This document shows, one piece after another, positions 13,975-38,033 of a DNA stretch of 64,000 bases. Origin of the DNA: Vampirovibrionaceae bacterium NZW_1234. GTDB taxonomy: Bacteria > Cyanobacteriota > Vampirovibrionia > Vampirovibrionales > JAGQHJ01. Below the pieces are notes generated by a model. The model was not told where the DNA came from. It was given only the letters and a program-made list of their open reading frames with translations, and searched no databases. The stretch covers positions 64,001 to 128,000 of the forward strand of contig JBGUGD010000009.1 of the NCBI GenBank assembly GCA_041697335.1. Direction: 5' to 3'. Position numbers and translations under genes: made by a program. The stretch's first letter is position 1, and every line of letters begins with the position of its first letter.

Positions 13975-14008
13975 CTAGATTTGATACCTGCGTTGCCGGG
14001 ATGACGGG

Positions 14009-14503: not shown

Positions 14504-14678
14504 AGGATATCAATTGCCCTGTTATCTCTTAAAATCGGTGCCCAGTGAAACGTCTCTGATGTATCGGACAGTCTGGGTTGGACTTTAGCAATATTGTCGA
14601 TTTGTAACGGGTTATGGATTTGTCTCAAGGGTCCTTCTATAATCCTCTTACGTGCACGTTGTTAAGATTCGGACGGTT

Positions 14679-21617: not shown

Positions 21618-21765
21618 CGTGGGCGGCATCTTCGTTCCTTAGATGATAGTGGCTCGGAAAATCCTCTGTTAATAGGATGAGCACGGCCGCAAGACGCGGG
21701 ACACTAGAGGTCAGTATGGCCCGGTATGTGCCTGAATATAGGGCCTGATGTCTAAAGGAGTGATC

Positions 21766-22377: not shown

Positions 22378-22420
22378 TGATATGGATGTTGATAATTGAT
22401 ATTAAAGAAGAGGCCACGGT

Positions 22421-23005: not shown

Positions 23006-23176
23006 ATATAATATATTGTTTTTTGAACAATTAGGTATTTATCACGTGAAAATGTTCCTGCGTAATTTGTTCTTGACAGCGCTATATCTCTCTTAGGGAC
23101 TGCTTAACCGCATTTAGTATAATAATTGGTTTATAACTTTAAAAAAATAAAAATTGTTAACGTTATTCACAGAATA

Positions 23177-23210
23177 ACACCATTTCTCTTAAGAAATTTT
23201 TTATACCTAT
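23177..23210 (+). promoter_or_regulatory. Copy of the recurring bipartite promoter-like motif
   Basis: ACACCA-N14-TTTTTTATA-ccta-T, 43 bp upstream of ATG 23249. Confidence 0.55.
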
Positions 23211-23248
23211 AGCAGAGAATATTACGATGTAAAGCGGGGGAATTACGA

Positions 23249-24448: not shown

Positions 24449-24458
24449 CATATTAAAT

Positions 24459-24491
24459 AAAGGCCTACAGGGGAATACCTGTAGGCCTTTT
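24459..24491 (+). terminator. Rho-independent terminator
   Basis: aaaggcctacagg/cctgtaggccttt(t). Confidence 0.85.
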
Positions 24492-24740
24492 CAGCAAACA
24501 AAGCTATTAATCTATAGCAGACCGAGTTATAGGAGAAATTTGAAAGTAAAAATACAAATCTGAAATTATAAATCTAGAAAAAGCCTTTTAAAGCTAAATA
24601 TCGTGGTTTAAACTTTTAAACTAAAGTTTATAATGTGTGTAAAAACAAATAAATAAATGATTATTAAAAGAATATTAATAATCGAATAAAAACTGGTTTT
24701 ATACACATAGGGGTAATGATTTTTAAGGGGGGTATACACA

Positions 24741-27431
24741 ATGTCAGGTATTGGTATCAGGGGGTTTGATCCGACGGAGCCTGTATTATTCGGGCCTGAT
24801 GGTGACATGCCAGTACGTGGACGTCGGCCTGCGGAACCATTTGTTCCTCGGATGGGCATGACTGTATACCGTCCAATTGACCCAATGACAGGGTTGCCAA
24901 GAGCAATTCCTTATATACCTGTTCCTGTGGCTCCTCCATCTGAACCAACTGGCACTTCGGGTCCAGCTTCAGTTGATGGAATGAACTCGGGCGTTAGTTA
25001 TGATGATTTTTATGCTCTACCTCCAGCACCTACTCCCGTCGGTAGCTCTGGAGCATCCGGCACAAGTGGTGCATCTGGTGCAAGCGGTGCCTCAGGTACA
25101 AGTGGTACAACTAGTCCGGTAGTCCCTGCCACTCCAACTAATCCAGACGCCATTAATTATGACGATTTTTATGCTGTACCTTCAGCACCCACTCCCGTCG
25201 GTAGCTCTGGCGCATCCGGCACAAGCGGTGCATCCGGCACAAGCGGTGCATCCGGCACAAGTGGCGCATCCGGCACAAGTGGCGCATCCGGCACAAGTGG
25301 CGCATCCGGCACAAGCGGTGCATCTGGAACAAGCGGCGCATCTGGAACAAGTGGCGCATCCGGGCCGGTAGCCCCAGCCACTCCAACTGATCCAGACGCC
25401 ATTAATTATGACGATTTTTATGCTGTACCTCCAGCACCCACTCCCGTCGGTAGCTCTGGCGCATCCGGCACAAGCGGTGCATCCGGCACAAGTGGCGCAT
25501 CCGGCACAAGTGGTGCATCCGGTACAAGCGGTGCCTCTGGAACAAGCGGTGCCTCTGGAACAAGCGGTGCATCCGGCACAAGTGGCGCATCCGGGCCGGT
25601 AGCCCCAGCCAATCCAACTGATCCAGAAGCCATTAATTATGACGATTTTTATGCTGTAACGCCAGCACCTACTCCCGTCGGTAGCTCTGGCGCATCCGGC
25701 ACAAGCGGTGCCTCTGGAGCAAGTGGCGCATCCGGCACAAGCGGTGCCTCTGGAACAAGCGGCGCATCCGGCACAAGTGGTGCATCCGGCACAAGCGGCG
25801 CATCCGGTACAAGCGGTGCCTCTGGAACAAGCGGCGCATCCGGCACAAGTGGTGCCTCTGGAACAAGCGGCGCATCCGGCACAAGTGGTGCCTCTGGAAC
25901 AAGCGGCGCATCCGGACCAACAACGCTTGCTGTCGGTGGCATAAACTATACTCTAGAGGTTGGTAGGCCTTTAGCCGGGACATCGGTTAATTTAACTGCA
26001 GATGATGTCACTAAACTGCGTGATGAAACACGCCAAGCTGCAAATTGGACTCGCTTTGAGAGTCTCGTTAATGATAGAGGCAATCCGTCGAAGATTGCAG
26101 AACTGAATACCTTTTTAGAGGGGTTAAGTCCAGCGGAACGACGTGTTTTGATGGATCGACTTGAAAAGCAGCTCGCCGATCGAGAAACGCCCAGTGCTGG
26201 AACACCTGATCAAAACCTGAGAAGGGTTGCTGCTCTTGGTTTGCCGTCTAGTACTTGGATTCGAATGAATGCTGGATTGACCTATCAGCCCAGTAATACA
26301 GAATGGGCCGTTAAGGATATTGTTGAGGGCCGATATCAACATAATCCGGCGAATTTAGGGGAATCCAGAGCTGCTATTGATCGTGCATCGCAGCTGTACC
26401 AATATCTGCAGACCTTGAAAAATGGTAATCCTGAGCAGAGACGTTTATATGATTCCATTATTGCTTCATACCGGAGCCAGCCTGGAAAAGCGTCTGCAGA
26501 TTTAGAAGCCGATTTAATAACGAATCAACGAAATTATTTAAATTGGTTAAATACGTCGACGACCATTAGTGCTACAGATCGGAATGCAGCTGTTACACAG
26601 CTTTTTGCGGGGATGCCGGCTGCACAGGCAAATCTGATTACAAATCCGCAAATCGATGGTGCTCGTGTTTCTGATCAAACTCTATTCCAAAGAGGTAACG
26701 AAAAGACAGCAACAGCGAATACCGGTGATAATGCATTCCTAGATAGCTCAGGATTCTATGCGGTTTCTCGCTGGACGAATTATGATAATCCAACACAACA
26801 TGCGGCCTTGCAACAAGAACGAGCTGCTTTAAGGGCACGTTTGGCAGGAGCTCAGTGGGACACCTTACCAGATCAAGGCTTGGATCAAGCTGGCTTTGAG
26901 ACTTGGTTAAATGCTCAAAATGATAATGTTAAGAACTTTGTTCGGGATTATCATACTTACTTGCAAGGCCAAGGGGTCACTGATGCAAATGAACGAAATC
27001 GCAGAATTCGCACATTATTCCTATCTCTCAAAATGAATGAGGTTCCGACTCGGGAAGATGTACAGGCGATTTTGGAGAAACCACACCTTGCATTACCCAA
27101 CATTACTGCAGAGAACCTAAATCAAAACTATACATCCAATAGTGTTTGGGACAATAATGCAACAAATCGCACACATGTAAGAAACCACTTAGTTACTTTA
27201 GGAGCTCGTTTTAATGATCTGCCAGGCGAGAACCTCACTCCAGAATTATTTAACACGTGGTTAAATAATCAAAATGCTCAGGTTAAACGCTTTGCAGAAT
27301 CATATAGAGCCTATTTGAGGACTTTAACGACTGGATCTCCTGCGAGACCTTTAACAAATGAGCAGATAGAAAGAGCTCTCCGTGCCTATTTCCTGTCATT
27401 AAAGTTGGAAACAATGGCTCCGCGTAGCTAA
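24741..27431 (+). CDS. Large hypothetical protein with four YDDFY + collagen-like (Gly-X-Ser)n blocks and a duplicated C-terminal domain
   Basis: 896 aa; (GASGTS)n tracts; two copies of LP..L....F.TWLN.QN..VK.F...Y..YL...R..FLSLK near the C-terminus. Confidence 0.88.
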   Translation: MSGIGIRGFDPTEPVLFGPDGDMPVRGRRPAEPFVPRMGMTVYRPIDPMTGLPRAIPYIPVPVAPPSEPTGTSGPASVDGMNSGVSYDDFYALPPAPTPVGSSGASGTSGASGASGASGTSGTTSPVVPATPTNPDAINYDDFYAVPSAPTPVGSSGASGTSGASGTSGASGTSGASGTSGASGTSGASGTSGASGTSGASGTSGASGPVAPATPTDPDAINYDDFYAVPPAPTPVGSSGASGTSGASGTSGASGTSGASGTSGASGTSGASGTSGASGTSGASGPVAPANPTDPEAINYDDFYAVTPAPTPVGSSGASGTSGASGASGASGTSGASGTSGASGTSGASGTSGASGTSGASGTSGASGTSGASGTSGASGTSGASGTSGASGPTTLAVGGINYTLEVGRPLAGTSVNLTADDVTKLRDETRQAANWTRFESLVNDRGNPSKIAELNTFLEGLSPAERRVLMDRLEKQLADRETPSAGTPDQNLRRVAALGLPSSTWIRMNAGLTYQPSNTEWAVKDIVEGRYQHNPANLGESRAAIDRASQLYQYLQTLKNGNPEQRRLYDSIIASYRSQPGKASADLEADLITNQRNYLNWLNTSTTISATDRNAAVTQLFAGMPAAQANLITNPQIDGARVSDQTLFQRGNEKTATANTGDNAFLDSSGFYAVSRWTNYDNPTQHAALQQERAALRARLAGAQWDTLPDQGLDQAGFETWLNAQNDNVKNFVRDYHTYLQGQGVTDANERNRRIRTLFLSLKMNEVPTREDVQAILEKPHLALPNITAENLNQNYTSNSVWDNNATNRTHVRNHLVTLGARFNDLPGENLTPELFNTWLNNQNAQVKRFAESYRAYLRTLTTGSPARPLTNEQIERALRAYFLSLKLETMAPRS
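24999..25917 (+). repeat. Nested coding repeat: 18-bp GASGTS units inside four larger units
   Basis: ggcgcatccggcacaagt-like 18-mers; large units start at YDDFY codons 24999, 25158, 25407 and 25638. Confidence 0.95.
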
Positions 27432-27446
27432 CGAAATGAAGATAAT

Positions 27447-27482
27447 AAGAGCTCTTTGTGCAGAATGAACAAAGAGCTCTTC
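27447..27482 (+). terminator. Terminator hairpin
   Basis: aagagctctttgt/acaaagagctctt. Confidence 0.7.
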
Positions 27483-27698
27483 TACTGTTTATAAATTACT
27501 CGGCTAGAAAAATATAAGGTTAGAGCTAAGAGGGAGGAAAGCTTGAATTGATTTTTGTCAAATAATAGAGTTTTTAGTGCTATATGCCATTATGTTAACT
27601 TTTGTTTCATACGTAACATCAAAAATATTAATATTGTTTTTATATTTGTAAGACTTATATAGTGCTAGGGTAATTTCCGTCTCGGAGGACATGGTACG

Positions 27699-28514
27699 GT
27701 GACATTTAATACAATATTGTTAATGACAGTCCCGATGGCTGTCGGCCAAGATCCTGACACGCCAAAGAGGCCAAGCCAGGTAGATAAGATAGAACCTTTT
27801 CCAGGCGGAAATAATGAAAATCTAGTTATCGGTGGTATTCCCGGGGGAAAGACGGGGACACCGTTTAAACCGGGACAGGTTAAAGTGGATGATACTAGAG
27901 GCACAGAAACAGGTTCAGGTGGTTCGCCGGGAGGTACTGGTGGATCAGTTTTTAAGCCAGGTCAAGTTAAGGTTGATGAAACTCGTGGTACTGAAGTAAA
28001 ACCGCCTATCCCCCAGCCTGCAGTTTATACACCACCGGCAGGGTTTTCCATGGATGTTGCAAAGGCAAATAGCCTGAGCTACCCGCCCCCAAAAAGGCCA
28101 TATGATCGTGGCGATATGAACTCTGAAAGTTATTACATTGCACGTAATCGCCCGAAGAATGAAGCTTTTGTGAAGCAGCTTTATCAAATGATTCTGGGGA
28201 GAGATGGTTCTCCAGGAGAAATCAGTGGTTGGAGCTCACGGTTAGATTCAGGTGAATCTGCAGATATGGTTCTTGCAGAGTTTTTGATTTCTGATGAATT
28301 TAACCAGAAATATCCAATGAGTAATGAAGAATTTGTAAAAAACGTTTATCGAATCTACTTACGCCGTGAAGCTGATCCTGAAGGGATAGCAGGATGGAGT
28401 GGAAAGGTTAATAGTGGTGAATTATCTCGAAAAGACTTAATTAAAAATATACTTCAATCTGCAGAATTCAGAAATAATGTACTTTTGCCAAGGTTACGAA
28501 TGTTGACTAGATAA
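27699..28514 (+). CDS. Array member 1: leader + 2 FKPGQVKVDD motifs + DUF4214-like domain
   Basis: GTG start after GGAGG; NEAFVKQLYQMILGR...NEEFVKNVYRIYLRREADPEGIAGW...QSAEF. Confidence 0.85.
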   Translation: MTFNTILLMTVPMAVGQDPDTPKRPSQVDKIEPFPGGNNENLVIGGIPGGKTGTPFKPGQVKVDDTRGTETGSGGSPGGTGGSVFKPGQVKVDETRGTEVKPPIPQPAVYTPPAGFSMDVAKANSLSYPPPKRPYDRGDMNSESYYIARNRPKNEAFVKQLYQMILGRDGSPGEISGWSSRLDSGESADMVLAEFLISDEFNQKYPMSNEEFVKNVYRIYLRREADPEGIAGWSGKVNSGELSRKDLIKNILQSAEFRNNVLLPRLRMLTR

Positions 28515-28614
28515 TAAGCGGAATTTGGCCAAGTCAAGTCTATGGCCATCGTCAATCTCATCTCGTAGTGATTTTAAATTCTTATACAGCTAGGTTTATG
28601 GAGGTCGTTGGATA

Positions 28615-29496
28615 ATGAATATTTCACCTGTAATGTTATTGGGCTTGCCATTTGGAGCGCCGCAAGATCCTAATACGCCGAAGCCGCCTAGCAATACAAA
28701 AAATATTGACGACAGTAGTGGTAATGAGTTTGGGGTGCCAGGGGCAACAACTCCAGATAAGAAACCGAATCATTATTTTAAGCCCGGTCAAGTTAAAGTA
28801 GTGGATTCAGGGGGAACAGAACCCAATGCTTCGAAATCCAACGGACCACCCTCAAAAAGTATATTTAAGCCGGGTCAGGTAAAAGTGGATGATTCTCGTG
28901 GGTCCGAGAAGGGAGTGCCCACTAAGGCCCCTGTGGTTTCTACTCCTCCATCTAGGAGCATCGATTTGGAATCTGCAAAGCGTTTAAGCTATCCTCCCAT
29001 CAATATTTGGGCTCTTAATTCTCTACCTGAACCATATAATTCTTTTGTGCAAGGAAATACCAAATATTTAGTTGAAAAATGCTTAAATAACTTTTCGAAG
29101 CAAACTTTTTTGGAAATCCAAAATAAAAAATTTGCAAAAGATGTCTACCAGCTATTGTTGGGCCGGGAAATACAGCCTTGGGAATTAGAGGCACGTGCCA
29201 ATCAATTGCAAACCGGTGAATTTACTCCGGAAGACTTAATAAAGGCGGTTCTCATTTCGGATGAGTTTAACCAGAAAAACCCAATGAGTAACGAGGAATT
29301 TACCAGAAGCCTATATCGGCTGATTCTACAACGAGAAGCGAAACCAAATGAAGTTTCTGGTTGGGCTTCCGCATTAGACTCAGGTCAGGTTAGTCGCAAG
29401 CAGATGATAGAAAAATTTCAGCAGTCCAGTGAATATCTTAGTGATGTAGCCTACCCAAGGTTTAAGGATGAAATAAGCCGTTATTCATTCTTGTAA
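28615..29496 (+). CDS. Array member 2: leader + 2 motifs + DUF4214-like domain
   Basis: FAKDVYQLLLGRE...NEEFTRSLYRLILQREA...QSSEY. Confidence 0.85.
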   Translation: MNISPVMLLGLPFGAPQDPNTPKPPSNTKNIDDSSGNEFGVPGATTPDKKPNHYFKPGQVKVVDSGGTEPNASKSNGPPSKSIFKPGQVKVDDSRGSEKGVPTKAPVVSTPPSRSIDLESAKRLSYPPINIWALNSLPEPYNSFVQGNTKYLVEKCLNNFSKQTFLEIQNKKFAKDVYQLLLGREIQPWELEARANQLQTGEFTPEDLIKAVLISDEFNQKNPMSNEEFTRSLYRLILQREAKPNEVSGWASALDSGQVSRKQMIEKFQQSSEYLSDVAYPRFKDEISRYSFL

Positions 29497-29557
29497 TGAA
29501 CAAAAAGAATTTTGATTACATTGGTTATTTACGGATAAGACACAGGAGACAATAAAA

Positions 29558-30079
29558 ATGAGCGTTACTAGTGTTTTACTTTTCGGAACACCATTGGCAA
29601 TTGGACAAGACCCAAATACACCAAAGCGTCCAACTCAAACAGGCACGATTGACCCGGATGCAGGTCGTGATAGTAATCCAGTCGTTGGCCCGGGAACAAC
29701 AGGGACACAAAACAATGTGTTTAAGCCTGGGCAGGTAAAAGTTGATGATAAACGTGGGACGGAGGTCACGGGTGCATCTTCCGGAAATTCGCCTCAAACG
29801 GTGTTTAAGCCAGGTCAAGTAAAAGTAGATGACACGCGCGGGACCGAAGTTGTAAAAGCACCGGTCGTAAATGTCCCTGCACCAACGGCCCCAACACCTG
29901 CAGTGACGTACTACCAACCGGTAAAAACCACAGATCCCGATGATGAATTGGTTTATGATGATACTTGTGGTAATGACGTCTATTATACCCGTCGTCAATT
30001 GCGAGAGAAAGAGGAAGCTATTCAGCGCGCACGCCCAAATGACACACCTCCAAGCTCTGATCCCTATGACAACTACTAA
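29558..30079 (+). CDS. Array member 3: leader + 2 motifs + DPDDEL.Y.D.CGND tail
   Basis: AGGAG RBS; shared leader GQDPNTPKRP. Confidence 0.85.
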   Translation: MSVTSVLLFGTPLAIGQDPNTPKRPTQTGTIDPDAGRDSNPVVGPGTTGTQNNVFKPGQVKVDDKRGTEVTGASSGNSPQTVFKPGQVKVDDTRGTEVVKAPVVNVPAPTAPTPAVTYYQPVKTTDPDDELVYDDTCGNDVYYTRRQLREKEEAIQRARPNDTPPSSDPYDNY

Positions 30080-30142
30080 CAGCTCATATAAAGAAAGACA
30101 CACGTAAATTAAATTGATAATTCGTAGGAGGACAACGATATA

Positions 30143-30664
30143 ATGAGCGTTACGAGTGTTTTGCTATTTGGGACACAGCTCGCAATTGGACAAGACCCAA
30201 ATACACCAAAGCGTCCAACTCAAACAGGTACGGTTGACCCGGATGCAGGTCGTGATAGTAATCCAGTCGTTGGCCCGGGAACAACAGGGACACAAAACAA
30301 TGTGTTTAAGCCTGGGCATGTAAAAGTTGATGATAAACGTGGAACGGAGGTCACGGGTGCATCTTCCGGAAATTCACCTCAAATGGTGTTTAAGCCAGGT
30401 CAAGTAAAAGTAGATGACACGCGCGGGACCGAAGTTCTGAAGACGCCAATTGGCGATACTCTGAGACCAACAAAGCCAACATCTGTGGTTAATAACTATC
30501 CACTGGTAATAACCACAGATCCTGATGATGAATTGGATTATACTGACTCCTGTGGTAACGATATTTACTTTACTCGGCGTCAGGTACGTGAAAAATGGGA
30601 AGCTGTTCAACGGGCAAGAGCAAATAGCAGACCCTCAAGCTCTGAATCCTATGACGACAATTGA
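30143..30664 (+). CDS. Array member 4: recent duplicate of member 3
   Basis: Near-identical DNA over the first about 290 bp; same tail family. Confidence 0.85.
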   Translation: MSVTSVLLFGTQLAIGQDPNTPKRPTQTGTVDPDAGRDSNPVVGPGTTGTQNNVFKPGHVKVDDKRGTEVTGASSGNSPQMVFKPGQVKVDDTRGTEVLKTPIGDTLRPTKPTSVVNNYPLVITTDPDDELDYTDSCGNDIYFTRRQVREKWEAVQRARANSRPSSSESYDDN

Positions 30665-30731
30665 ATACTCAAGTAAGAGACGAAAATAACTTGAAGAAAT
30701 TAATTGGATAGAATATGGAGTAAATTGGAAA

Positions 30732-31154
30732 ATGAGCTTTGGAACCATAGCAATGATGTCATTAACAACCACATTACCTTGGAAGTTTATTCCAGAAGAT
30801 ACGCCAAAGAGAGAAAGTAATGCCAATAAAATTGAAGATACCAGTGGCAATGGAACACAGACAACAGGATCGTCTTCTGGGGGTTCTTCTAACAACTATT
30901 TTAAACCAGGTCAAGGGAGAGTAGATGATACCCGCGGAACAGAAGTCGCGAAGACAGGTACTGCTGCAAAGCAACCATCATCGGCAGTATCAACGAGCAA
31001 CAGCGAGTCTTTGTTTGCTGAAAAAGAAATTATGATTTTATGGGGAGTTAATATGAAGGTAGTTTATTTTAATGCTCCTATTAAAAGCGTTCCTTCTTCT
31101 ACGGAGCAAAACCCTGAAATTCCTAAGTATCTTCGTGACTTACATGGCCTGTAA
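30732..31154 (+). CDS. Array member 5: leader + 1 motif + unique tail
   Basis: MSFGTIAMM...DTPKR...YFKPGQGRVDDTRGTE. Confidence 0.8.
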   Translation: MSFGTIAMMSLTTTLPWKFIPEDTPKRESNANKIEDTSGNGTQTTGSSSGGSSNNYFKPGQGRVDDTRGTEVAKTGTAAKQPSSAVSTSNSESLFAEKEIMILWGVNMKVVYFNAPIKSVPSSTEQNPEIPKYLRDLHGL

Positions 31155-31260
31155 ATATTCTTTTACCCAGTAGTAAGAGTTTTCTATTCTCTATTACCGA
31201 TAACTACAATATACAAGGTATGAATATCATTATTTCGCAAAACTAAGGAGGAATTGGACA

Positions 31261-31776
31261 GTGACATTTGGAACCATTGCAATGATGACACCTTGGAGTT
31301 TCGGTCAGGATCCGGATACGCCAAAAAAAACCAGTAATGCTAAAAATGTTGATGATTCTGGTGGCCTTGGCACCTATTTTGGAGGTAATTCAACCGTTAA
31401 TCCTGGTGGAAGTAACGCAACAAGTGTATTCAAGCCCGGTAAAGTCAAGGTTGATGATGCCCGGGGTACTGAAACGAAAGGGGCAACCCCTGGAGGAGGA
31501 GGTTCTAAGTCGGTATTTAAACCTGGTCAAACAAAGGTTGATGATACTCGGGGGACTGAAGTGAAGACTCCGCCCGTGGTAGCTAAACCTGCAACTCCTT
31601 CTGAGGAAAAAAAGGAACCTTATAATCCTGGTTATCGATCCGAGTCAGAACCACCACCAGGCTACTACTGGGATTACAGTGACGTTGTTGCTGGCGGAGG
31701 GGGGCCTGATTTGAAACCTATTCCTGGGTATCGTCCTTCTGCACCTCCGCCTGAGTTTGATCCGAATGATTTTTAG
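31261..31776 (+). CDS. Array member 6: leader + 2 motifs + PP.GYYWD.SD tail
   Basis: GTG start after AAGGAGG; tail shared with member 11. Confidence 0.85.
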   Translation: MTFGTIAMMTPWSFGQDPDTPKKTSNAKNVDDSGGLGTYFGGNSTVNPGGSNATSVFKPGKVKVDDARGTETKGATPGGGGSKSVFKPGQTKVDDTRGTEVKTPPVVAKPATPSEEKKEPYNPGYRSESEPPPGYYWDYSDVVAGGGGPDLKPIPGYRPSAPPPEFDPNDF

Positions 31777-31791
31777 TCATCTTCGCTAGCC

Positions 31792-31839
31792 TTAAAAGTG
31801 ACAATGCAAGGTGTTTTGCCTTGCTTTTGTCACTTTTAA
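31792..31839 (+). terminator. Hairpin/terminator after member 6
   Basis: ttaaaagtgacaa...ttgtcacttttaa. Confidence 0.6.
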
Positions 31840-32079
31840 CTTTAATCCTGGTCTATAATAGCTATGCTTTATGCAATCTGTTTTTATAAGATGCATTGTT
31901 TTTTGCTATGAGATTGAACATATTTTGTTCTGTTCTAGAAATAGAGTGCTATAAAGTCCTTGAACTTAATGAGCATAAGTATTTACATTCTCACAACATT
32001 TCCGAATTACTTGTTTTAAAGCAAATAATAGCTCGTTTTACAGATTGAGGGTAGTATCTAATCGCCTAAGTTAGGGGTT

Positions 32080-32976
32080 ATGAGTATGATTTATTTAAAT
32101 ATAGGAACTTGGATGCCTACACTGGTGTCTGATCAAGAGAAGCAGAAACGTCATAGTTCGGCAAAAAATATTGATGACTCAAGTGGTTCTGATGCAAAGA
32201 CCAGCGATAGAGGAGCACAATCTTCAGAGAAACCAAAAACGGCTTTTGGCCCTGGTAAAGTTAAAGTGGATGATAGTTCCGGGATGCAAAAAAAACAAGA
32301 TGAAAAGAGGGCAACTGATAAGACTAAAAACTATTTTCGGCCAGGAAAAGTGAAAGTTGACGATTCTCGTGGTACAGAGAAAAGTCAGACCAGCAAGGAT
32401 GATAAGTCCAAAAGCTATTTTCGGCCAGGAAAAGTCAAAGTTGATGATTCACGTGGTACAGAAAATACAAAAAAAGCAGAGCCAAAGGTTGTTGTAAAGA
32501 CAACAGAGGTTAAGGTTACAGAGCAAAAGGTTAAGGCTGTATTTGATACTTTGGAAAAGGTCAATTTTACTAATCTTTATGGTAAGCGCAGCGATCGGTT
32601 AGACCCAACCAAGACGCCAAACCCCGATATGGTGATGGCACTGAAGGCACTAAAAGATGTTGGGTTTGATCCTGGTCTTCCCTATGATAAACAACCACCA
32701 GCTGCGCAAGAAATGATTCGACGGCTCCGCGATAAATATCGTAACCAAGAACGCTCCATTGACGATGACACAACAGATTCGGTCTATAACCGGATGTCTA
32801 GGGAACATCGTAAAAGAACGACTGATGAGGAAATTCGTCGCATGCTTTATCGAATGTATTCCAGCCATACTTTACAAAGTGAACGTCGGGAAGCCGGCTT
32901 TGATACGGATTATTGGGGTAATCATCTAGATTTTATTCCAGATAAGCAGGTTCTGGGTTACCGGAGTAAATATTAA
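32080..32976 (+). CDS. Array member 7: Lys-rich, 3 motifs + unique helical tail
   Basis: SSAKNIDDSSGS; YFRPGKVKVDDSRGTE twice plus one degenerate copy. Confidence 0.85.
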   Translation: MSMIYLNIGTWMPTLVSDQEKQKRHSSAKNIDDSSGSDAKTSDRGAQSSEKPKTAFGPGKVKVDDSSGMQKKQDEKRATDKTKNYFRPGKVKVDDSRGTEKSQTSKDDKSKSYFRPGKVKVDDSRGTENTKKAEPKVVVKTTEVKVTEQKVKAVFDTLEKVNFTNLYGKRSDRLDPTKTPNPDMVMALKALKDVGFDPGLPYDKQPPAAQEMIRRLRDKYRNQERSIDDDTTDSVYNRMSREHRKRTTDEEIRRMLYRMYSSHTLQSERREAGFDTDYWGNHLDFIPDKQVLGYRSKY

Positions 32977-33179
32977 ACTTAATCCTGATTGCCGCTTGCA
33001 ATGTACAGATTTGATTTTGCTTAATAGTATATCTTTGTATGTGCAATGTATTTACTTTGTCGCAATATATGATTACAATATGGCACGAAATGTCTTAATA
33101 AAGTTTTTATAATTATAGGTTTAATTAAGTGCCGAATTGGCAATGTGTTTAGGCAGTATAATTTTGAGGGACACTGGAC

Positions 33180-33983
33180 ATGGGATACGGAAATTTAATA
33201 TCAAAAGTAGGTGCTTATGCGATAGGGCAGAGTGAAGTAACACCTAAATTACCAAGCTCTGCAGGTAAGATCTCAGATAGCAGTGGTTCTGAAATTGGGC
33301 TTGGTGGCGGCTCATTTGAAAAGCCAAAAGTGCTGTTTAAGCCAGGGCTTGTTAAGGTAGATGATGTCCGTGGAACAGAAATTCCAACAGCTAAGGCACC
33401 TGAGCCAAAGGAGCCTGCTACTCCTCCAACACCGCCGGCGCAACCGACACGTTATTCCTCACAGGCTGAAATGCGTCGAGATTTTGACCAAGTCTTGGAT
33501 AGACTGACTGCAGGTGCAAACTTAAAGGGAAGTAATGAGTTTCAAGGGAACCGGGGTGATCGAACTCGCTTTGTTCAGGCCGCTGGGGCATTAGAAAGTT
33601 TACAGCCCGGAGGTACATTGAATGAAACAACACGTAGTAATTTGACGTATCTCGGCTTTACTAACGATGATATTGATCGGATGCAAACTGATGGCCGTTA
33701 TCGTAATCTGACGCGTAGGATTTTAACCTATATCGACCAAAACTGGGGTGATAGTGGAACTAGCGGGGTTAATTATATAACTGATGATAATGGTAATGAG
33801 GCCAATTGTGGTGGATGTATTTCAGATAATGACTTGTTAGGACTGCGTTATGGTGGTACATCTAATCCACCGTTATTCAATGATAGAGGCATATTGTTTT
33901 GGGACTCCAGCTATAACTATAACGGCAACGCTGATAGACATCATAAGGCCCTGATTGATACTCTTCATAAAAATTGCCTTTAA
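33180..33983 (+). CDS. Array member 8: leader + 1 motif + unique globular tail with CGGC
   Basis: MGYGNLIS...PSSAGKISDSSGSE; LFKPGLVKVDDVRGTE. Confidence 0.85.
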   Translation: MGYGNLISKVGAYAIGQSEVTPKLPSSAGKISDSSGSEIGLGGGSFEKPKVLFKPGLVKVDDVRGTEIPTAKAPEPKEPATPPTPPAQPTRYSSQAEMRRDFDQVLDRLTAGANLKGSNEFQGNRGDRTRFVQAAGALESLQPGGTLNETTRSNLTYLGFTNDDIDRMQTDGRYRNLTRRILTYIDQNWGDSGTSGVNYITDDNGNEANCGGCISDNDLLGLRYGGTSNPPLFNDRGILFWDSSYNYNGNADRHHKALIDTLHKNCL

Positions 33984-33992
33984 TATCGTATT

Positions 33993-34023
33993 ACTGGGTG
34001 AGCAATTCAATTGCTCACCCAGT
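33993..34023 (+). terminator. Near-perfect palindromic hairpin after member 8
   Basis: actgggtgagcaatt-c-aattgctcacccagt. Confidence 0.65.
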
Positions 34024-34159
34024 TCGTATCAGTCAAAATCAATAATAATAATAACTTGGCGGCTTTAATTCCACCAAGTCAAAACGGTGTGGCTCTGAGA
34101 CTATATGAAAAAACAGACTTTTAAGTCAGGTAAAATTGTAAAAAATTGCTTACGATTTC

Positions 34160-34193
34160 TCACAAAATTCCTTAAGAAAGTTTTTATATTAAT
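34160..34193 (+). promoter_or_regulatory. Consensus copy of the recurring bipartite promoter-like motif
   Basis: TCACAA-N14-GTTTTTATA-ttaa-T; near-identical context (ccttaagaaagtttttatatt) at 35269-35302. Confidence 0.65.
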
Positions 34194-34259
34194 AGACCCA
34201 CACGATGATGTTTATTAATTATGGCACTGTGGACAATAAGATTTTAGAGGACAAAGGAC

Positions 34260-34826
34260 ATGGGATTCGGAAATATTGCAATCATGACAGGTGCAATGGC
34301 CTTGGGCCAAAGTCCTGATACTCCGAGCCGGCCGAGTTCTGCCGGAAATATTAGTGACAGTAGCGGTTCGGAAGTCACATCTAGTGGCAGTGGCGCGAAG
34401 TCTACAGGAGCCCAATCAGGTTCTCCATTTCGGCCAGGTCAGGTAAGAGTGGATGATAGCCGTGGTACAGAAGTAACATCTACTGGTGGACCTGGAGGCA
34501 AACCTACTGCGTTTAAACCGGGCCAAGTACGGGTCGATGATACTCGTGGAACCGAGGTCAGGAATAATAATAATCCTCCACCGGCAGTATTTACACCGCC
34601 GTCACCCCCTCCAATAGTGGAGCGTCGGCTTATTTTGACTAACCAGAATTGTTGTATCGGTTGCCACCCGAGCGCACCTTCTTATCGGGGTGTTGCTAAT
34701 CCAGGGTTTGGTTCTAATAGAGATATGCCAGACTTAAGCACATTCTTTAACCAATCTCGTCGTGGTGCTAGTCCATCACGCTTAACAGATGACGAAATAA
34801 GGGCGCTCTTGGCTCCAAAGCGTTAA
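34260..34826 (+). CDS. Array member 9: leader + 2 motifs + cytochrome c-like tail (CIGCH)
   Basis: CxxCH at 34653-34667, later DMP and LTDDEIRALL. Confidence 0.85.
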   Translation: MGFGNIAIMTGAMALGQSPDTPSRPSSAGNISDSSGSEVTSSGSGAKSTGAQSGSPFRPGQVRVDDSRGTEVTSTGGPGGKPTAFKPGQVRVDDTRGTEVRNNNNPPPAVFTPPSPPPIVERRLILTNQNCCIGCHPSAPSYRGVANPGFGSNRDMPDLSTFFNQSRRGASPSRLTDDEIRALLAPKR

Positions 34827-35371
34827 TTATAGCTATTTCAGCTTTGAACGTTTGCCAAAATAACTTGTTTTTCACTCAAAATTATTAATGAAATTAGTTG
34901 AGCAAGAAGTTTTTCAATTAGATTGAAAAACTTCTTGTTAGTTCCGGCTGTATCTATAAAGTGTCCACGCATTTAACATTTCAGGTTATGAATTTTTGAG
35001 TAGTATTCAATTAAAGCTCCCCTTTAACTAATGCTTGTTCGAGTTTTCTAATTGATCCAGTTTTAAAGGGGTATTTTCTACGGGAAGAAATTCAATGTTC
35101 TATAAAAAAGTTCTCGCATTATTTCTAAAGTAAAGTGTTCTGTGCTGATGTTCGTTGCTAATTTAGCTTGCACTCAGGCCAATGTTTGCAGTTTAAGTAT
35201 TGCTTTCTAGAGAGGATAACGTAAAGAGTTGATGCAATTTATGAATGTAAAGTTTGAGTTACAGAAAAGCATAAATTACCTTAAGAAAGTTTTTATATTT
35301 ATATATACAAATATGGCATAGGTTAATAAGACTAGGTTAATGGACAATAGGACTTATGGAGGTCTGTGGAC

Positions 35372-36007
35372 ATGGGATACGGAAATATTGCAATTATGAC
35401 AAGTTCTTTGGCGATGGGGCAAAATGCTGATACTCCCCGTCGTCCGAGCTCTGCTGGAAACATTAGTGACAGTAGTGGTTCGGAAGTCACGTCTGGTGGT
35501 GGCGGTGCACAATCTGCTGGAGGCCAATCAGGTTCTCCATTTCGGCCAGGCCAAGTAAGAGTGGATGATAGCCGCGGTACAGAAGTAACATCTACCGGTG
35601 GAGCTGGAGGCCAATCAGGTTCTCCATTTCGGCCAGGTCAAGTTCGTGTAGATGATACTCGCGGTACAGAAAGAGCGAGTACTTCAGGTCGACAAGCTAC
35701 TGTACCATCATCTACTTTAACAACAACGCCTTCGTACTCTAGCTTCCCCAGTTATGGTGGCCCAGGCCCAGGTATGGTACCAGTGACTGTTGGTGGTTGG
35801 GGTCCTTATGGAGGAGGTCCTGCCGGAACACCAGGCATTGGTTCAGGCCCTCAAATTGTAGGTTATAGACCGGCCGGAGGCTACGGGGCCTATGGTGGTC
35901 CTGGTGGTGGTGGTTATACCGGCGGTGGCTACGGCTCTTATGGTGGTGGTGGCTATGGCTCCTCTGGTGGGGGGTATGGATCCTATGGCGGTGGCTTCCG
36001 TCGATAA
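35372..36007 (+). CDS. Array member 10: leader + 2 motifs + Gly/Tyr-rich low-complexity tail
   Basis: MGYGNIAIMT; GGYG repeats. Confidence 0.85.
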   Translation: MGYGNIAIMTSSLAMGQNADTPRRPSSAGNISDSSGSEVTSGGGGAQSAGGQSGSPFRPGQVRVDDSRGTEVTSTGGAGGQSGSPFRPGQVRVDDTRGTERASTSGRQATVPSSTLTTTPSYSSFPSYGGPGPGMVPVTVGGWGPYGGGPAGTPGIGSGPQIVGYRPAGGYGAYGGPGGGGYTGGGYGSYGGGGYGSSGGGYGSYGGGFRR

Positions 36008-36053
36008 ATGTTTATTGATGATTTAGGCTTATGGACAATGGAGGACAATAGAT

Positions 36054-36569
36054 ATGGGATTTGGTAATCTCGCATTAATCACAAGTGCTTATGCGATGGG
36101 GCAAAGTCCTGATACCCCACGCCGTCCTAGCTCTGCAGGAAATATTTCTGACAGTAGTGGAACAGAAATTGGTGGTGGCGGTAATGGACAGCAACCTGGG
36201 GCTGTTCCCGGGAATCCTTTCCGACCTGGGCAAGTCCGAGTTGATGATACCCGTGGAACGGAGCGGCCTGGTCAAGGCGGACCCGGCGGAGTATCTGGAG
36301 GCGCATTTAGGCCAGGTCAGGTAAGAGTTGACGATACACGCGGTACTGAAAGAAGACCGCCTGCTACTGTACCAACCACACCGACTACTACCTATTCAAG
36401 CTCAAGCTCAAGTACTAGCTCAGGAAGTGGTGAAGATTATAATAATCCACCTGCCGGATATTATTGGGATTTCAGTGACACTTGCGGTGGGCTGCCTACA
36501 TTAAGACCCATCCAAGGGTATCGTCGTACACCTCCTCCAACTTACGATGAAGATTGGTGTAACGGATAA
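36054..36569 (+). CDS. Array member 11: leader + 2 motifs + PP.GYYWD.SD tail
   Basis: MGFGNLALIT; PPAGYYWDFSDTCGGLPTLRPIQGYR. Confidence 0.85.
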   Translation: MGFGNLALITSAYAMGQSPDTPRRPSSAGNISDSSGTEIGGGGNGQQPGAVPGNPFRPGQVRVDDTRGTERPGQGGPGGVSGGAFRPGQVRVDDTRGTERRPPATVPTTPTTTYSSSSSSTSSGSGEDYNNPPAGYYWDFSDTCGGLPTLRPIQGYRRTPPPTYDEDWCNG

Positions 36570-36607
36570 AATACTCACTCACTTCATAATAATCGAATGT
36601 CATTATA

Positions 36608-36675
36608 TCTAGCCCAATGATTTTCAGCATTCAAACCATGCAACCTGGGGTGTTGTTCGTAATCATTGGGCTAGA
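36608..36675. repeat. 15-bp inverted repeat with a 38-nt spacer between members 11 and 12
   Basis: tctagcccaatgatt ... aatcattgggctaga. Confidence 0.7.
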
Positions 36676-36762
36676 CTTATTTAGAGAGCATTGCACATTT
36701 AGACTCACTATATTGGACAAAACGTACAGGGTTAATTTCTAGAAATAGAAGGAAAATTTGCT

Positions 36763-37380
36763 ATGGGTTACACGACAATAATTGATAGAGCCGTTCTTAG
36801 AGCCATTGGACAAGATGCAACCACGCCAAGACGACCAAGTGCTGCAGGAAATATTAATGATAATAGTGGTAGCGAGGTGAACTCTGGGAGTTTATTAATC
36901 CCTACAGGGGAGACTTCTCAAAATGTTTTCCGACCTGGAAAAATTGCAGTGGATGACACTCGTGGAGTGGAAGTCAATAAAAATGCAGTTTCTGGTTTAT
37001 CTAACAATTATTTCCGACCGGGGCAGGTAAAAGTAGATGATGAACGTGGAACGGAAGTCAATAAAAATGCAGTTTCTGGCTCATCTAACAATTATTTCCG
37101 ACCGGGGCAGATAAAAGTAGATGACAAGCGTGGGACAGAGGTTGTGGTTTCACCTGCTCTGCAGCCAGTGTCATCTACTGGAGTTAATCATGCTCCAAAT
37201 CTAAATGGAGTCCAATTTACAAACCATGTGCCAGGAACATTTGGGTTTGGGGGGGCTCCTCCTGGCTCCTTCGGAGGCCCTCCATTTGGACCCTTCTATC
37301 CGGGCTTTGCTGGAAATCCACATGGTTTTCACGGATCATCTTATGGTGGAAGCTTCACTGGAGGCTCGGTATATCGCTAA
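36763..37380 (+). CDS. Array member 12: leader + 3 motifs + Gly/Phe/Pro-rich tail
   Basis: GQDATTPRRPSAAGNINDNSGSE; three FRPG..VDD.RG.E copies. Confidence 0.85.
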   Translation: MGYTTIIDRAVLRAIGQDATTPRRPSAAGNINDNSGSEVNSGSLLIPTGETSQNVFRPGKIAVDDTRGVEVNKNAVSGLSNNYFRPGQVKVDDERGTEVNKNAVSGSSNNYFRPGQIKVDDKRGTEVVVSPALQPVSSTGVNHAPNLNGVQFTNHVPGTFGFGGAPPGSFGGPPFGPFYPGFAGNPHGFHGSSYGGSFTGGSVYR

Positions 37381-38033
37381 ATTATGGTTTTCAGCTGACC
37401 TGTAAATATGCTACTGAACTCAATCAGGTTAAGAGAACTAGCTACTTCTTGGTTTAAAATCCCGATAACAAAAGTTTTAGGTGGTTCTGACAGTATTGGG
37501 AGTGGATTATCATCCACTCCCTTAGCTTTTAAGACTTTTCTAAGTACTTCCTATCGATCTTTAAATAGTTATTAAAGAATGAGCTTTAAAGGAGTGTCCA
37601 GTATAAGCGTTTGCGTAGAAGCTGCATAAAATAGACTATGTATGATCAATTTTTAAAAAAACACTTTTTGAATCATTGTGTTACAAGCTATTAAAATTAA
37701 GAATTAATTAGTTTTTATATATATGGGGAAATTCTGAAAAATAACAATACAGAGTGAATGACGAGAAATATTAGAGGGAAATAGTATGTATTCAGCAGGT
37801 TTAACTTTGATCGATTTTAAAGGCGGCGTATTCTAACGCCTCCCTTTACATGGCAGCGTACTGTGCGTTTTTGCTTTGAAGTACGCTGCCCATATTTATT
37901 TTTCCAAATTGATTAAAATGCTCAGCGAGCTGCTGCACAGCACAGATAACGTGCTGGGTCTCAAGTTCGTAGGAAATCGAGATGAGCGAAACTGCGATAA
38001 AAAATTTGACACACGAGGGGGGTACTCAAACTT

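Follow-up and report, generated by a model that had tools for sequence, protein, structure and literature searches.

Twelve consecutive genes of an uncultured, non-photosynthetic relative of cyanobacteria (genome of 3.7 Mb, 94.75% complete) were found to encode a family of modular proteins, in which a constant head, predicted to be disordered, is joined to variable tails. The family is confined to one locus of one genome and is kept under purifying selection, and its sequences record the shuffling of heads and tails. Our leading interpretation, which we hold tentatively, is that these are lineage-specific exported or envelope-associated proteins, with the head serving as a common handle for sorting and docking. 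Export, docking and the location of the docking partner are steps that we infer.

The array was defined on the open reading frame list of the window, the whole 64-kb stretch of DNA analysed. The 12 frames with a common N-terminal head are all on the + strand and span exactly 27699-37380, as the preliminary description had it. When 30 nt upstream of each start were read, a purine-rich site of GGAG, GAGG or AAGG type was observed 6-14 nt 5' of the start in all 12 genes, which are the following.

27699..28514, + strand: gene 1, 271 aa; motifs at aa 56 and 85; tail of two DUF4214 units
28615..29496, + strand: gene 2, 293 aa; two motifs, the first degenerate (FKPGQVKVVDSGGTE); DUF4214 tail
29558..30079, + strand: gene 3, 173 aa; two motifs; orphan tail of 76 aa
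30143..30664, + strand: gene 4, 173 aa; young duplicate of gene 3, two motifs
30732..31154, + strand: gene 5, 140 aa; one motif, second repeat slot decayed; short orphan tail
31261..31776, + strand: gene 6, 171 aa; two motifs; Pro/Tyr-rich tail, also in gene 11
32080..32976, + strand: gene 7, 298 aa; three motifs, the first degenerate; orphan tail of 170 aa
33180..33983, + strand: gene 8, 267 aa; one motif; orphan tail of 200 aa with three Cys
34260..34826, + strand: gene 9, 188 aa; two motifs; tail of 89 aa with CXXCH
35366..36007, + strand: gene 10, 213 aa from GTG; two motifs; Gly/Tyr-rich low-complexity tail
36054..36569, + strand: gene 11, 171 aa; two motifs; tail related to that of gene 6
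36763..37380, + strand: gene 12, 205 aa; three motifs; Gly/Phe/Tyr-rich tail

The true start of gene 10 is probably the ATG at 35372, giving 211 aa and matching the length of the database copy. In the contig of one run this gene lacks 87 nt, equal to one repeat unit (35515->35603). For gene 7, a near-identical fragment of 162 aa (P0004) lies on a separate contig of 943 bp.

The head, about 100-130 residues long, carries four short conserved elements at fixed positions, namely a leader of about 16 residues, a P-[DN]-T-P-[KR]-[RK]-P-S box, an N-I-x-D-S-S-G-x-E box and a repeat motif present one to three times; a Pro/Thr/Ser-rich linker then leads to the tail. The leader is hydrophobic and uncharged, with no K or R within its first eight residues in any of the 12 proteins, and both boxes claimed beforehand were recovered in the alignments (as P-[DN]-T-P-[KR]-x-P-[ST] and I-x-D-x-[SG]-G). 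Residues 3-16 are hydrophobic and free of charge in 10 of the 12, charges falling inside this stretch in genes 8 and 12, and the best 10-residue hydropathy window ranges from 0.99 to 2.38, reaching at least 2.0 in five. The motif is a strictly conserved stretch of 15 residues, F-[KR]-P-G-x-V-[KR]-V-D-D-x-R-G-T-E, with Q at position 5 in its fuller consensus. By a six-frame search of the window with the expression F.PG.....[DE]..G.., 24 matches were detected, the number counted before, all of them in frame within the 12 genes (2, 2, 2, 2, 1, 2, 3, 1, 2, 2, 2 and 3 in order); elsewhere in the window and in the 3.7-Mb genome the motif was absent. The first copy begins at residue 53-59 in every gene, and the interval from motif to motif is 28-30 residues in 12 of 12 cases, although the Gly/Ser-rich spacers, constant in length, differ in sequence. 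At position 2 the 24 copies have K 13 times and R 10 times, and at position 7 K 16 times and R 7 times. As K and R are freely swapped at both positions, the pattern points to recognition of charge rather than to lysine chemistry.

No fitting family for the head was detected in Pfam, NCBIfam or PHROG, in agreement with the earlier impression that it has no name. The preliminary description had allowed for the motif being an already characterised Pfam repeat; no Pfam repeat matched it. The proposed profile search for taxonomic range, covering 1.84 billion representative proteins together with 60 related genomes and three collections of contigs, returned the family from this genome only. Within the genome, a search of 14,619 open reading frames with the leader gave 12 matches at E <= 8e-4, the next being at E > 0.7. 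Since no protein outside the array has this leader, it is not a general sorting signal.

Conservation of the motif at the protein level despite synonymous codon variation, as noted earlier, was borne out by codon comparison. Among 276 pairs of copies, pS was 0.77, and thus saturated, against a pN of 0.136, indicating that selection acts on the protein; the ratio is far below 1, whereas a dN/dS near 1 had been considered as the opposite outcome. For the heads, dN/dS was about 0.13 in both pairs whose dS was not saturated (0.02/0.15 for genes 3 and 4; 0.09/0.69 for genes 9 and 10), and the tails of genes 3 and 4 gave 0.27/1.10. Heads and also tails are under purifying selection, and the family is confirmed as real and maintained by selection. 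The heads of genes 3 and 4 are 96% identical and their tails 59%, and the contrast between a head dS of 0.15 and a tail dS of 1.10 is as expected from homogenisation or recombination of heads. The heads of genes 9, 10 and 11 share 71-81% identity but are joined to three tails unrelated to one another, bearing out the constant-head, variable-tail architecture proposed at the outset; the tail type common to genes 6 and 11 (40% identity over 67 aa, E 1e-13), on the other hand, stands on heads just 49% identical. Closely related heads with unrelated tails show that heads and tails were shuffled.

The tails had been taken as mostly unrelated. This held for the four singletons (genes 5, 7, 8 and 9) but not for four related pairs, genes 1 and 2 (DUF4214), 3 and 4, 6 and 11, and 10 and 12 (Gly/Tyr-rich low complexity), so that about eight different small tail types are present. 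The DUF4214 tails were matched by Pfam PF13946 with E 7.5e-25 for gene 1 and 2.1e-18 for gene 2, and are 37.5% identical to each other. The gene 1 tail was modelled by AF2 as helical with pLDDT 81-93, and Foldseek assigned the model to the phycobilisome-linker fold (7sc8_BK, 1.9e-4; 3osj_C, TM 0.56). In the literature matches that mention DUF4214, the name was absent from titles and abstracts. Gene 7 gave only weak sub-threshold rows in Pfam (LPD39, E 0.018) and no usable Atlas match, and the sole match of the gene 8 tail in a search of 5.8 billion clusters was itself. The tail of gene 9 is a candidate small c-type cytochrome: besides CXXCH it has features that we take to be typical of such proteins, and its closest Atlas clusters are cytochrome c (score 0.87, which is no more than a lead). 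A BLASTP comparison with the cytochrome c of the same genome gave E 0.05. No Pfam (E <= 10), PDB or homologue match was obtained, and none of the model-based tests, which also included a PF13442 genome scan, recognised this tail as a cytochrome c. Genes for c-type cytochromes, and a maturation gene of CcsA type, are present in the genome.

In the AF2 model of the head (residues 1-148), block pLDDT was 36-59 and secondary structure was lacking, against 81-93 for the tail of the same model. The head is thus predicted to be intrinsically disordered, compatible with a role in docking or as a carrier of short linear motifs. Such a head might instead act inside the cell, the motif binding a multivalent cytoplasmic scaffold and bringing varied client domains to one body, with spacers between stickers as in the pyrenoid Rubisco-binding motif (PMC7673724) and the disordered cargo-loading domains of family 2 encapsulins (10.1101/2024.04.23.590730), so far as the accessible parts of these two reports describe them. 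One to three identical motifs with Gly/Ser-rich spacers of constant length in a disordered head would suit this arrangement, as would a leader whose weak hydrophobicity and lack of charge do not fit a textbook Sec signal, and the gene 1 and 2 tails have the predicted fold of phycobilisome linkers, organisers of a cytoplasmic super-complex. However, neither an encapsulin (PF04454) nor a BMC shell gene (PF00936) was detected in the 94.75%-complete genome, though PF04454 might miss shells of family 2; the locus contains no candidate scaffold gene; Pfam identified no enzyme among the cargoes; and Gly/Tyr-rich, Pro-rich and CXXCH tails would be odd clients for a cytoplasmic body. We regard this alternative as unlikely.

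In the interpretation that we prefer, the leader would direct each protein to the cytoplasmic membrane or through it. The repeated motif, described as zwitterionic and hairpin-like, would then bind one common partner multivalently and at fixed geometry, and this partner may sit in the cell envelope or extracellular matrix of a mat-dwelling diderm bacterium. The tails would add differing properties (phycobilisome-linker-like DUF4214, Gly/Tyr-rich material, Pro-rich segments and possibly a haem-binding module). Cleavage by signal peptidase I follows the -3/-1 rule, and the [AS]-x-G that precedes Q at the close of the leader in 9 of 12 proteins, identified by eye from the alignment, fits this rule. 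The CXXCH tail of gene 9, together with the CcsA-type gene, hints at an extracytoplasmic location. Pro/Thr-rich linkers and Gly/Tyr-rich tails, both present in the array proteins, are typical of envelope and matrix proteins. Export is no more than plausible, since the leader is without the positive n-region of Sec signals; by its sequence it is not a classical Sec signal, and the ordinary secreted proteins of the same window do have basic n-regions. Against an envelope location stands the predicted DUF4214 tail fold, which is that of phycobilisome linkers, cytoplasmic proteins.

A 49-nt element, D9, precedes four of the genes, and terminator-like hairpins follow two.

27603..27651, + strand: D9 element before gene 1, 49 nt, A/T-rich
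33070..33118, + strand: D9 element before gene 8, the reference copy
34147..34195, + strand: D9 element before gene 9, aligned with the other copies
35256..35304, + strand: D9 element before gene 10, aligned with the other copies
31806..31824, + strand: terminator-like hairpin after gene 6
37498..37521, + strand: terminator-like hairpin after gene 12, 10 pairs

The D9 family has four copies, 63-78% identical to the reference copy. It is a candidate promoter common to genes 1, 8, 9 and 10, and was counted as putative evidence of co-regulation. Terminator-like sites in the region were no more frequent than in shuffled sequence (14 versus 16.1), and the reading of the gene 6 hairpin as a terminator is therefore weak.

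The neighbours of the array are as follows.

23249..24448, + strand: 399-aa protein; N- and C-terminal helices conserved, C-terminus ...FKNNYA
24741..27431, + strand: upstream neighbour, 896-aa collagen-like protein with Gly-Ala-Ser and Gly-Thr-Ser triplets
38034..40535, + strand: downstream neighbour, 833-aa protein with a hydrophobic hairpin and a coiled coil

The collagen-like protein (Pfam Collagen, 8.5e-27) has a GC3 of 0.349 and belongs to the same low-GC3 island as the array; a search of 30 relatives did not recover its C-terminal half. Homologues of the 833-aa protein were found in 3 of 4 genomes of the same family and in 1 of 13 of the f3 family, and the 399-aa protein is a conserved neighbour of this 833-aa family.

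The two conserved flanking genes bear on another route of export, in which the array proteins would be substrates of a flagellar-type type III apparatus, effector-like or matrix proteins, the uncharged N-terminus acting as a non-cleaved signal and the disordered repeat region as a chaperone- or gate-binding domain. Type III secretion signals are not cleaved and are rich in S, T, I, N and G and free of basic residues, a composition that the disordered N-termini of the array proteins have. The 833-aa protein has what we take to be a translocator- or Inc-like layout, and the profile of the 399-aa protein matched the type III tip protein IpaD weakly (E 0.0018 against PDB). The two matching stretches taken singly, however, gave E 0.76 and 40, and the AF2 model of this protein was of low confidence (mean pLDDT 53), without a Foldseek fold match at E <= 0.001. 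The genome has two FlhA/SctV-family genes, FliPQR-FlhB, FliF-FliH-FliI-rod genes and three flagellin genes; both FlhA loci, however, are in flagellar contexts (rod, FliF, FliH), no injectisome-specific gene was detected in either, and no export gene adjoins the array. Short N-terminal motifs are also common to several other protein sets of the genome, [ST]LRFG occurring within the first 40 residues of 11 open reading frames, where 200 shuffles gave 1.87 on average and never more than 7. Type III signals have no testable consensus. We judge this route to be rather unlikely.

The suggestion that the repeat is a modification tag fared worse. If the genes encoded RiPP precursors, leader and repeated core or recognition motifs would serve a maturase elsewhere in the genome, with the tails as follower domains. 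A conserved leader and a short repeated motif with many K, D, T and E residues bear a superficial resemblance to multi-core graspetide or cyanobactin precursors, and two ATP-grasp peptide maturases are encoded in the genome. Both, however, flank precursors of their own on contig C30, with 6 and 5 cores of T-x-K-x-P-S-D type (NCBIfam NF033738, 2e-13 and 1e-19), and this real multi-core microviridin cluster is unlike the array. None of the 12 array proteins matched NCBIfam at E <= 0.1. The K/R exchange at both basic motif positions rules out lysine as a cross-linking nucleophile there, and the tails include a folded domain and are under purifying selection. By Pfam, no transporter or maturase was recognisable in the array, as stated earlier, or in the window, where protease and cyclase were likewise not detected; the sole ATP-grasp match, at 57048-59255, belongs to an acyl-CoA synthetase domain set (CoA-binding and CoA-ligase). 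Precursor function is thus very improbable.

Among known systems, the Salmonella SifA/SseJ/SspH group has a common N-terminal translocation domain with a WEK(I/M)xxFF region and differing C-terminal domains. The array resembles such effectors in a non-enzymatic constant N-terminus of about 100 residues, in C-terminal modules that vary and in having several paralogues per genome. It differs in that no sequence relation or injectisome was seen, in forming one tandem array, in the exact fixed-period repeat of the head and in secretion being putative. To DUF4214 and phycobilisome-linker proteins (PF13946) belong two of the 12 tails (genes 1 and 2), with no bearing on the head. In the pyrenoid, as set out in the accessible part of PMC7673724, a short and often repeated motif in disordered regions of otherwise unrelated proteins is an address or linker to Rubisco; the array likewise combines a short motif, disordered regions, otherwise unrelated parts and a putative common address, but that system is eukaryotic, with Rubisco as partner and scattered genes, whereas the array consists of paralogues at one locus with an unrelated motif. 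Family 2 encapsulin cargo, according to the accessible part of 10.1101/2024.04.23.590730, has disordered N-terminal cargo-loading domains with conserved short motifs, so that both have a long disordered N-terminus with short motifs ahead of a functional domain. Unlike this cargo, the array has a hydrophobic leader and non-enzymatic cargoes, and no shell gene was found. With microviridin and graspetide precursors, including the two on contig C30, it has in common a leader followed by a tandem short conserved motif; it differs from them in core consensus, in having no NF033738 match or adjacent ATP-grasp gene, in the exchange of K and R at basic positions and in large tails under selection. The mycoplasma Vlp/Vsp type comprises tandem families of variable surface proteins whose signal peptide is conserved. 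The array is similar in its tandem paralogues, conserved leader, internal repeats of possibly varying number and divergent remainders, but no lipobox Cys, basic n-region or phase-variation switch was seen, and its repeats are the most conserved part of the protein, whereas those of Vlp/Vsp are the variable part.

Between positions 27699 and 37380 of the window, we found 12 consecutive open reading frames on the + strand (genes 1 to 12; g1 to g12), each of 140-298 codons and each with a purine-rich ribosome-binding site 6-14 nt 5' of the gene (12/12). Alignment of the whole proteins (A1) and of their N-terminal parts (A2) indicated that all 12 carry a common head followed by a variable C-terminal tail. 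Four elements constitute the head.

Element 1: uncharged hydrophobic leader
Element 2: P-[DN]-T-P-[KR]-[RK]-P-S box
Element 3: N-I-x-D-S-S-G-x-E box
Element 4: 15-residue motif F-[KR]-P-G-x-V-[KR]-V-D-D-x-R-G-T-E, in one to three copies

The preliminary description had counted 24 copies of the motif, and a six-frame regular-expression scan of the window gave the same number, all in frame in the 12 genes. The first copy begins at residue 53-59 in 12/12 genes, and the copy-to-copy intervals (n=12) are 28-30 residues throughout, with spacers that are rich in Gly, Ser, Thr, Asn and Pro and unlike one another in sequence. In g5 the second repeat has been lost. A contig of sequencing run X5 joins position 35515 to 35603 and so lacks 87 nt, the exact length of one 29-residue unit in gene 10. 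Either repeat number varies within the population, or the assembler collapsed two units that share 90% identity.

Among the 24 motif copies (276 pairs), synonymous differences reached 0.77, which is saturated, against 0.136 for non-synonymous differences. No copy departs from F1, P3, G4, V8 or G13; D9, D10 and E15 are retained in 23/24 copies and R12 in 22/24, and K and R interchange at both basic positions. Such charge-patterned conserved residues with K/R interchange mark the motif as an element for recognition or docking rather than as part of a fold or catalytic site. Since dS was saturated in most gene pairs, selection on the head was estimated from pairs with unsaturated dS, giving a dN/dS of about 0.13 (g3/g4, 0.02/0.15; g9/g10, 0.09/0.69); for the g3/g4 tails the values were 0.27/1.10. 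A ratio near 1, which the preliminary description had named as evidence against its reading, was not found for the heads of these two pairs. The array is protein-coding and under selection.

By AlphaFold2, run on an alignment of only 12 rows that are all paralogues, residues 1-148 of gene 1 were modeled as a block with pLDDT 36-59 and without secondary structure, and the predicted complex of three head copies scored 0.03 against a mark of 0.42, which speaks neither for nor against self-association. The head is a predicted disordered string of short linear motifs at fixed spacing. Disorder and fixed pitch would agree also with an intracellular sticker-spacer tag. Against such a tag, which we regard as rather improbable, no scaffold or shell was found: neither PF04454 nor PF00936 had a match in the genome, which is 94.75% complete, with the restriction that family 2 encapsulin shells could escape the PF04454 model.

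Heads and tails were then compared separately. Among the heads, g8-g12 form a clade (49-81% identical), g3 and g4 are a young pair (96%) and older singles make up the rest; the tails are related as follows.

Tail pair g1 and g2: 37.5% over 184 aa
Tail pair g3 and g4: 59%
Tail pair g6 and g11: 40% over 67 aa, E 1e-13
Tail pair g10 and g12: Gly/Tyr-rich low complexity
Tail singletons: g5, g7, g8 and g9

Three unrelated tails are present on the heads of g9, g10 and g11, which are themselves 71-81% identical, while the tail type common to g6 and g11 is borne by heads just 49% identical. The earlier claim of a constant head with an exchangeable tail was justified by these combinations. Head dS was far below tail dS for both g3/g4 (0.15 vs 1.10) and g9/g10 (0.69 vs 1.84), which together with the mismatched pairings indicates separate histories of head and tail, via recombination or conversion.

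No named family had been recognized for the head in the preliminary description, and this was borne out in Pfam, NCBIfam and PHROG, the PHROG profiles giving 0 matches at E <= 0.01 among the 8/12 array proteins searched. The sole Pfam row on a motif was Permuted_GreAB-C, sub-threshold at E 0.095, which we read as a probable generic beta-hairpin likeness. Family membership was observed for tails only, and in 2/12 proteins: DUF4214 (PF13946; Pfam cut-off, 23.2 bits) matched gene 1 at 87.2 bits and gene 2 at 66.6 bits. Residues 151-270 of gene 1 were predicted by AlphaFold2 as a confident helical domain (pLDDT 81-93), the fold of which resembles phycobilisome linker domains by Foldseek (7sc8_BK, 1.9e-4; 3osj_C, TM 0.56; 2ky4). 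DUF4214 is mentioned in 10 papers of the literature searched, none of which has its function as a subject in title or abstract.

The tail of g9 carries a CXXCH haem-attachment motif, and its closest Atlas clusters are c-type cytochromes, at a feature score of 0.87 that serves as a lead only. Against the cytochrome c of the same genome, BLASTP gave E 0.05 with the alignment confined to the CXXCH region. Neither Pfam nor PDB gave any match at E <= 10, the tail was absent from the PF13442 scan of the genome at E <= 1, and a homologue search found none. Its identity as a c-type cytochrome is a candidate assignment. The g7 and g8 tails are orphans, the former without usable Atlas match and the latter without homologue in the search; those of g10 and g12 are of low complexity and Gly/Tyr/Phe-rich, and those of g6 and g11 are Pro/Tyr-rich. 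In the tblastn search of all tails against the genome, no paralogue was found beyond the array except for a weak DUF4214 match on contig C5. An array of polymorphic toxins or effector-immunity pairs was rejected, as no toxin family matched at E <= 0.1 (best, Ntox15, E 0.19) and the gaps within g1-g6, 61-106 nt, are too short for interleaved immunity genes.

A set of genes with a common leader could also encode RiPP precursors, and we consider this highly improbable. The 12 array proteins gave 0 NCBIfam matches at E <= 0.1, including NF033738, and the core T-x-K-x-P-S-D-x-[DE]-[DE] was not found in them. The window holds no RiPP-type ATP-grasp; both maturase genes of the genome lie on contig C30 beside their own precursors, and these C30 precursors, serving as the positive control in the same genome, matched NF033738 at 2e-13 and 1e-19. 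The C30 locus itself and related genes in a same-family genome are listed below.

L033 (locus on contig C30), 4165-5094 (-), 12197-12658 (-), 12874-13407 (-) and 13607-14515 (-): multi-core microviridin-type RiPP cluster
L028 (locus of genome G004), 13888-14982: homologous maturase genes near the homologue of the 833-aa protein

The maturases of the C30 cluster are two ATP-grasp proteins that match TIGR04187/04184/04185 at E 1e-31 to 1e-44, scores that do not reach the curated cut-offs. They flank the precursor open reading frames of 177 and 153 aa, which contain 6 and 5 tandem T-x-K-x-P-S-D-type cores, respectively.

The distribution of the head was next determined. Its own genome measures 3.70 Mb in 41 contigs and is 94.75% complete; the head profile matched there 14 times, always inside the array, and a leader-only HMM against 14,619 open reading frames detected the 12 array genes at E <= 8e-4 and nothing further below E 0.7. 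Profile A2 was found in 0/60 related genomes, which were taken from its family, order and class. A word search of 5.8 billion clusters gave only the organism's own proteins and P0004 (162 aa), which is nearly identical to part of gene 7 and is encoded on a contig of 943 bp; the exhaustive HMM search of 1.84 billion representatives gave 11 matches, each an own protein or P0004. There were 0 matches in the genome contigs collection and 0 in the viral contigs collection, and two metagenome-contig matches were rejected as off-frame chance matches in high-GC DNA. Four motif strings, searched as text, occurred in no paper of the literature covered. As far as these collections go, the family appears to be confined to one organism. 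The array is present in 11 public DNA runs, from hot-spring and microbial-mat metagenomes, and no RNA run was found among the public runs holding it. Contigs at least 99% identical cover 30/30 bins in run X1, 27 in X3, 24 in X5 and 15 in X9, although these runs may include the source sample and so are not independent support.

As to the organism, no photosynthetic reaction-centre gene was found in the genome, which encodes LptF/G and TonB, flagellar genes and flagellins, and c-type cytochromes and CcsA. VirB4 and phage sheath gave no match in it. For its Dxr, the nearest named relative comes from a metagenome-assembled genome of an 'uncultured cyanobacterium' (61% identity), with the next matches at <=50% identity and from many phyla.

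The surroundings of the array include the following features.

21748-24448 and 38034-40535 in the window, with L027:9397-14545, L028:7788-10524 and L029:9538-12323 in same-family genomes: conserved family neighbourhood
23249-24448, + strand: 399-aa protein of the ...FKNNYA family
24741-27431, + strand: 896-aa collagen-like protein without evident signal peptide
38034-40535, + strand: 833-aa protein
About 24000-40500 (G000:C9:88000-104500 in the genome of the window): low-GC3 island, GC3 0.29-0.40

All 12 array genes show GC3 of 0.29-0.37, where the genome averages 0.568 (sd 0.086; 1,631 open reading frames of at least 300 codons), placing every one in the lowest 1.3% of the genome. The bias extends to the upstream collagen-like gene (0.349) and to the downstream 833-aa gene (0.403), and GC3 is typical (0.60) in the CxxCxxCC genes just upstream of the island. 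These values fit a foreign origin, or a distinct mutation or expression regime. The conserved neighbourhood contains two CxxCxxCC (PF03692) genes, one or two ...FKNNYA proteins, in which the helices at both termini are conserved and the middle varies, and a protein that has a hydrophobic hairpin together with a coiled coil. A FliB-type name for the CxxCxxCC neighbours was discarded for want of an NCBIfam match. In the collagen-like protein, four I-N-Y-D-D-F-Y-A-x-P-x-A-P-T-P-V-G units are set apart by long Gly-Ala-Ser / Gly-Thr-Ser triplet runs, and its C-terminal half (500 aa) is helical with internal repeats. In genomes G003, G004 and G002, the 399-aa and 833-aa genes and the CxxCxxCC pair are neighbours, without array or collagen-like gene, in a comparison covering only four same-family genomes of 56-92% completeness. 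Since relatives keep these neighbours without the array, and a search of 30 relatives did not detect the C-terminal half of the 896-aa protein, it appears that the array and the collagen-like gene were added to a conserved locus in this lineage.

With respect to regulation, a 49-nt A/T-rich element is common to the upstream regions of g1, g8, g9 and g10, and hairpins were detected 3' of g6 and g12. This arrangement suggests several co-regulated transcription units in the array, though neither the promoter scan (31 against 32.7 in shuffles) nor the terminator scan (14 against 16.1) showed enrichment.

The profile of the ...FKNNYA family gave a weak PDB match, E 0.0018, to the type III tip protein IpaD. 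An IpaD-like identity of the 399-aa neighbour is a lead only: the per-stretch E-values are weak, the AlphaFold2 model has a mean pLDDT of 53 and Foldseek gave no match at E <= 0.001. The match bears on the proposal that the array proteins are substrates of flagellar-type type III export, which is also favored by the N-terminal composition, by the flagellar-type apparatus with two FlhA copies in the genome, by the translocator-like neighbours, and by further N-terminal motif families; we judge it a real though unlikely alternative, given the weakness of the IpaD evidence and the low-confidence model without fold match. To our knowledge, type III secretion signals have no sequence consensus. The genes concerned are as follows.

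G000:C2:99188-101164 (-) and C32:11558-13534 (-): FlhA/FHIPEP paralogues, one with FliP-FliQ-FliR-FlhB, the other with FliF, FliH, FliI and rod genes
42087-42653 (-) and 42831-43421 (-) in the window, and 9 elsewhere in the genome: open reading frames with [ST]LRFG within the first 40 residues
L029:1690-2676 (-): protein of genome G002 with the same motif
44142-45584 (+), 45996-46670 (+) and 47160-48437 (+): three acidic low-complexity orphan proteins

Of all occurrences of [ST]LRFG in open reading frames, 11/14 are N-terminal (shuffles, n=200: mean 1.87, maximum 7), and the proteins are otherwise unlike one another; at the N-terminus, [ST]LRFG is a putative signal for sorting or recognition. 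As for the acidic proteins, the first two have a common N-terminal FEF-[LI]-x-P-[LV]-Y, the first and third resemble each other in a region of 216 aa (33% identity), and contig C25 encodes a paralogue of the first.

The reading that we favor, tentatively, is that the head is a shared sorting-and-docking handle of envelope or matrix proteins. It is supported by the hydrophobic leader free of charge, by Pro-rich linkers, by the Gly/Tyr-rich tails and the CXXCH tail, by the collagen-like neighbour gene, and by [AS]-x-G-Q in 9/12 genes. On alignment reading, [AS]-x-G stands immediately before Q at residues 14-19 in all except g2, g5 and g7, so that small residues occupy -3/-1 of a candidate signal peptidase site. 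Against the handle, the leader is only moderately hydrophobic (best 10-residue Kyte-Doolittle mean 0.99-2.38, with 5/12 reaching 2.0; charges lie within the hydrophobic stretch in g8 and g12) and the basic n-region of classical Sec signals is missing throughout, with K or R in residues 1-8 of 0/12 leaders, while secreted proteins of the same window have it. In addition, no other protein of the genome uses the leader, the cytochrome reading of the g9 tail is unproven, and the linker family whose fold DUF4214 has is cytoplasmic.

A broader proposal, to which we give a small share of probability, is that the head would be the address label of an undescribed sorting and assembly route in non-photosynthetic relatives of cyanobacteria, combining uncharged signal, docking repeat and scaffold. 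The unusual uncharged signal at the N-terminus, which the flagellar-type export gate with its two FlhA copies may read, would be followed by the multivalent fixed-pitch docking repeat. Through this repeat, small interchangeable domains would be attached to a scaffold of the envelope or the cell exterior that is specific to the lineage, for example the adjacent collagen-like fibre; the [ST]LRFG and FEF-x-x-P-x-Y families might then be parallel labels of the same logic. The remaining probability goes to functions other than handle, type III export, sticker-spacer tag and RiPP.

If the head serves as a handle for sorting or docking, nature would have provided a compact combination of tag and linker without relative among about 15 billion predicted proteins, in a host from a deep, uncultured branch beside cyanobacteria whose cell biology is almost unknown. 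With 12 paralogues, saturated synonymous sites and a near-invariant 15-residue motif at fixed pitch, the array is a natural experiment, usable to identify the binding partner of a short linear motif and to follow the making of new proteins by tail swaps onto a constant head. Its value is limited in that the family comes from one metagenome-assembled genome of an uncultured organism and any function assigned to it is putative.

The architecture is of a known kind, a tandem multigene family whose members keep one N-terminal module and exchange their C-terminal ones. Variable surface-protein arrays are built in this way, as are effector families that have a translocation domain in common. The motif-addressed clients of pyrenoids (PMC7673724) or of encapsulins (10.1101/2024.04.23.590730) are further comparators. 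By sequence the family belongs to none of these kinds; it is an orphan, and its fixed-pitch repeat is unusually clean.
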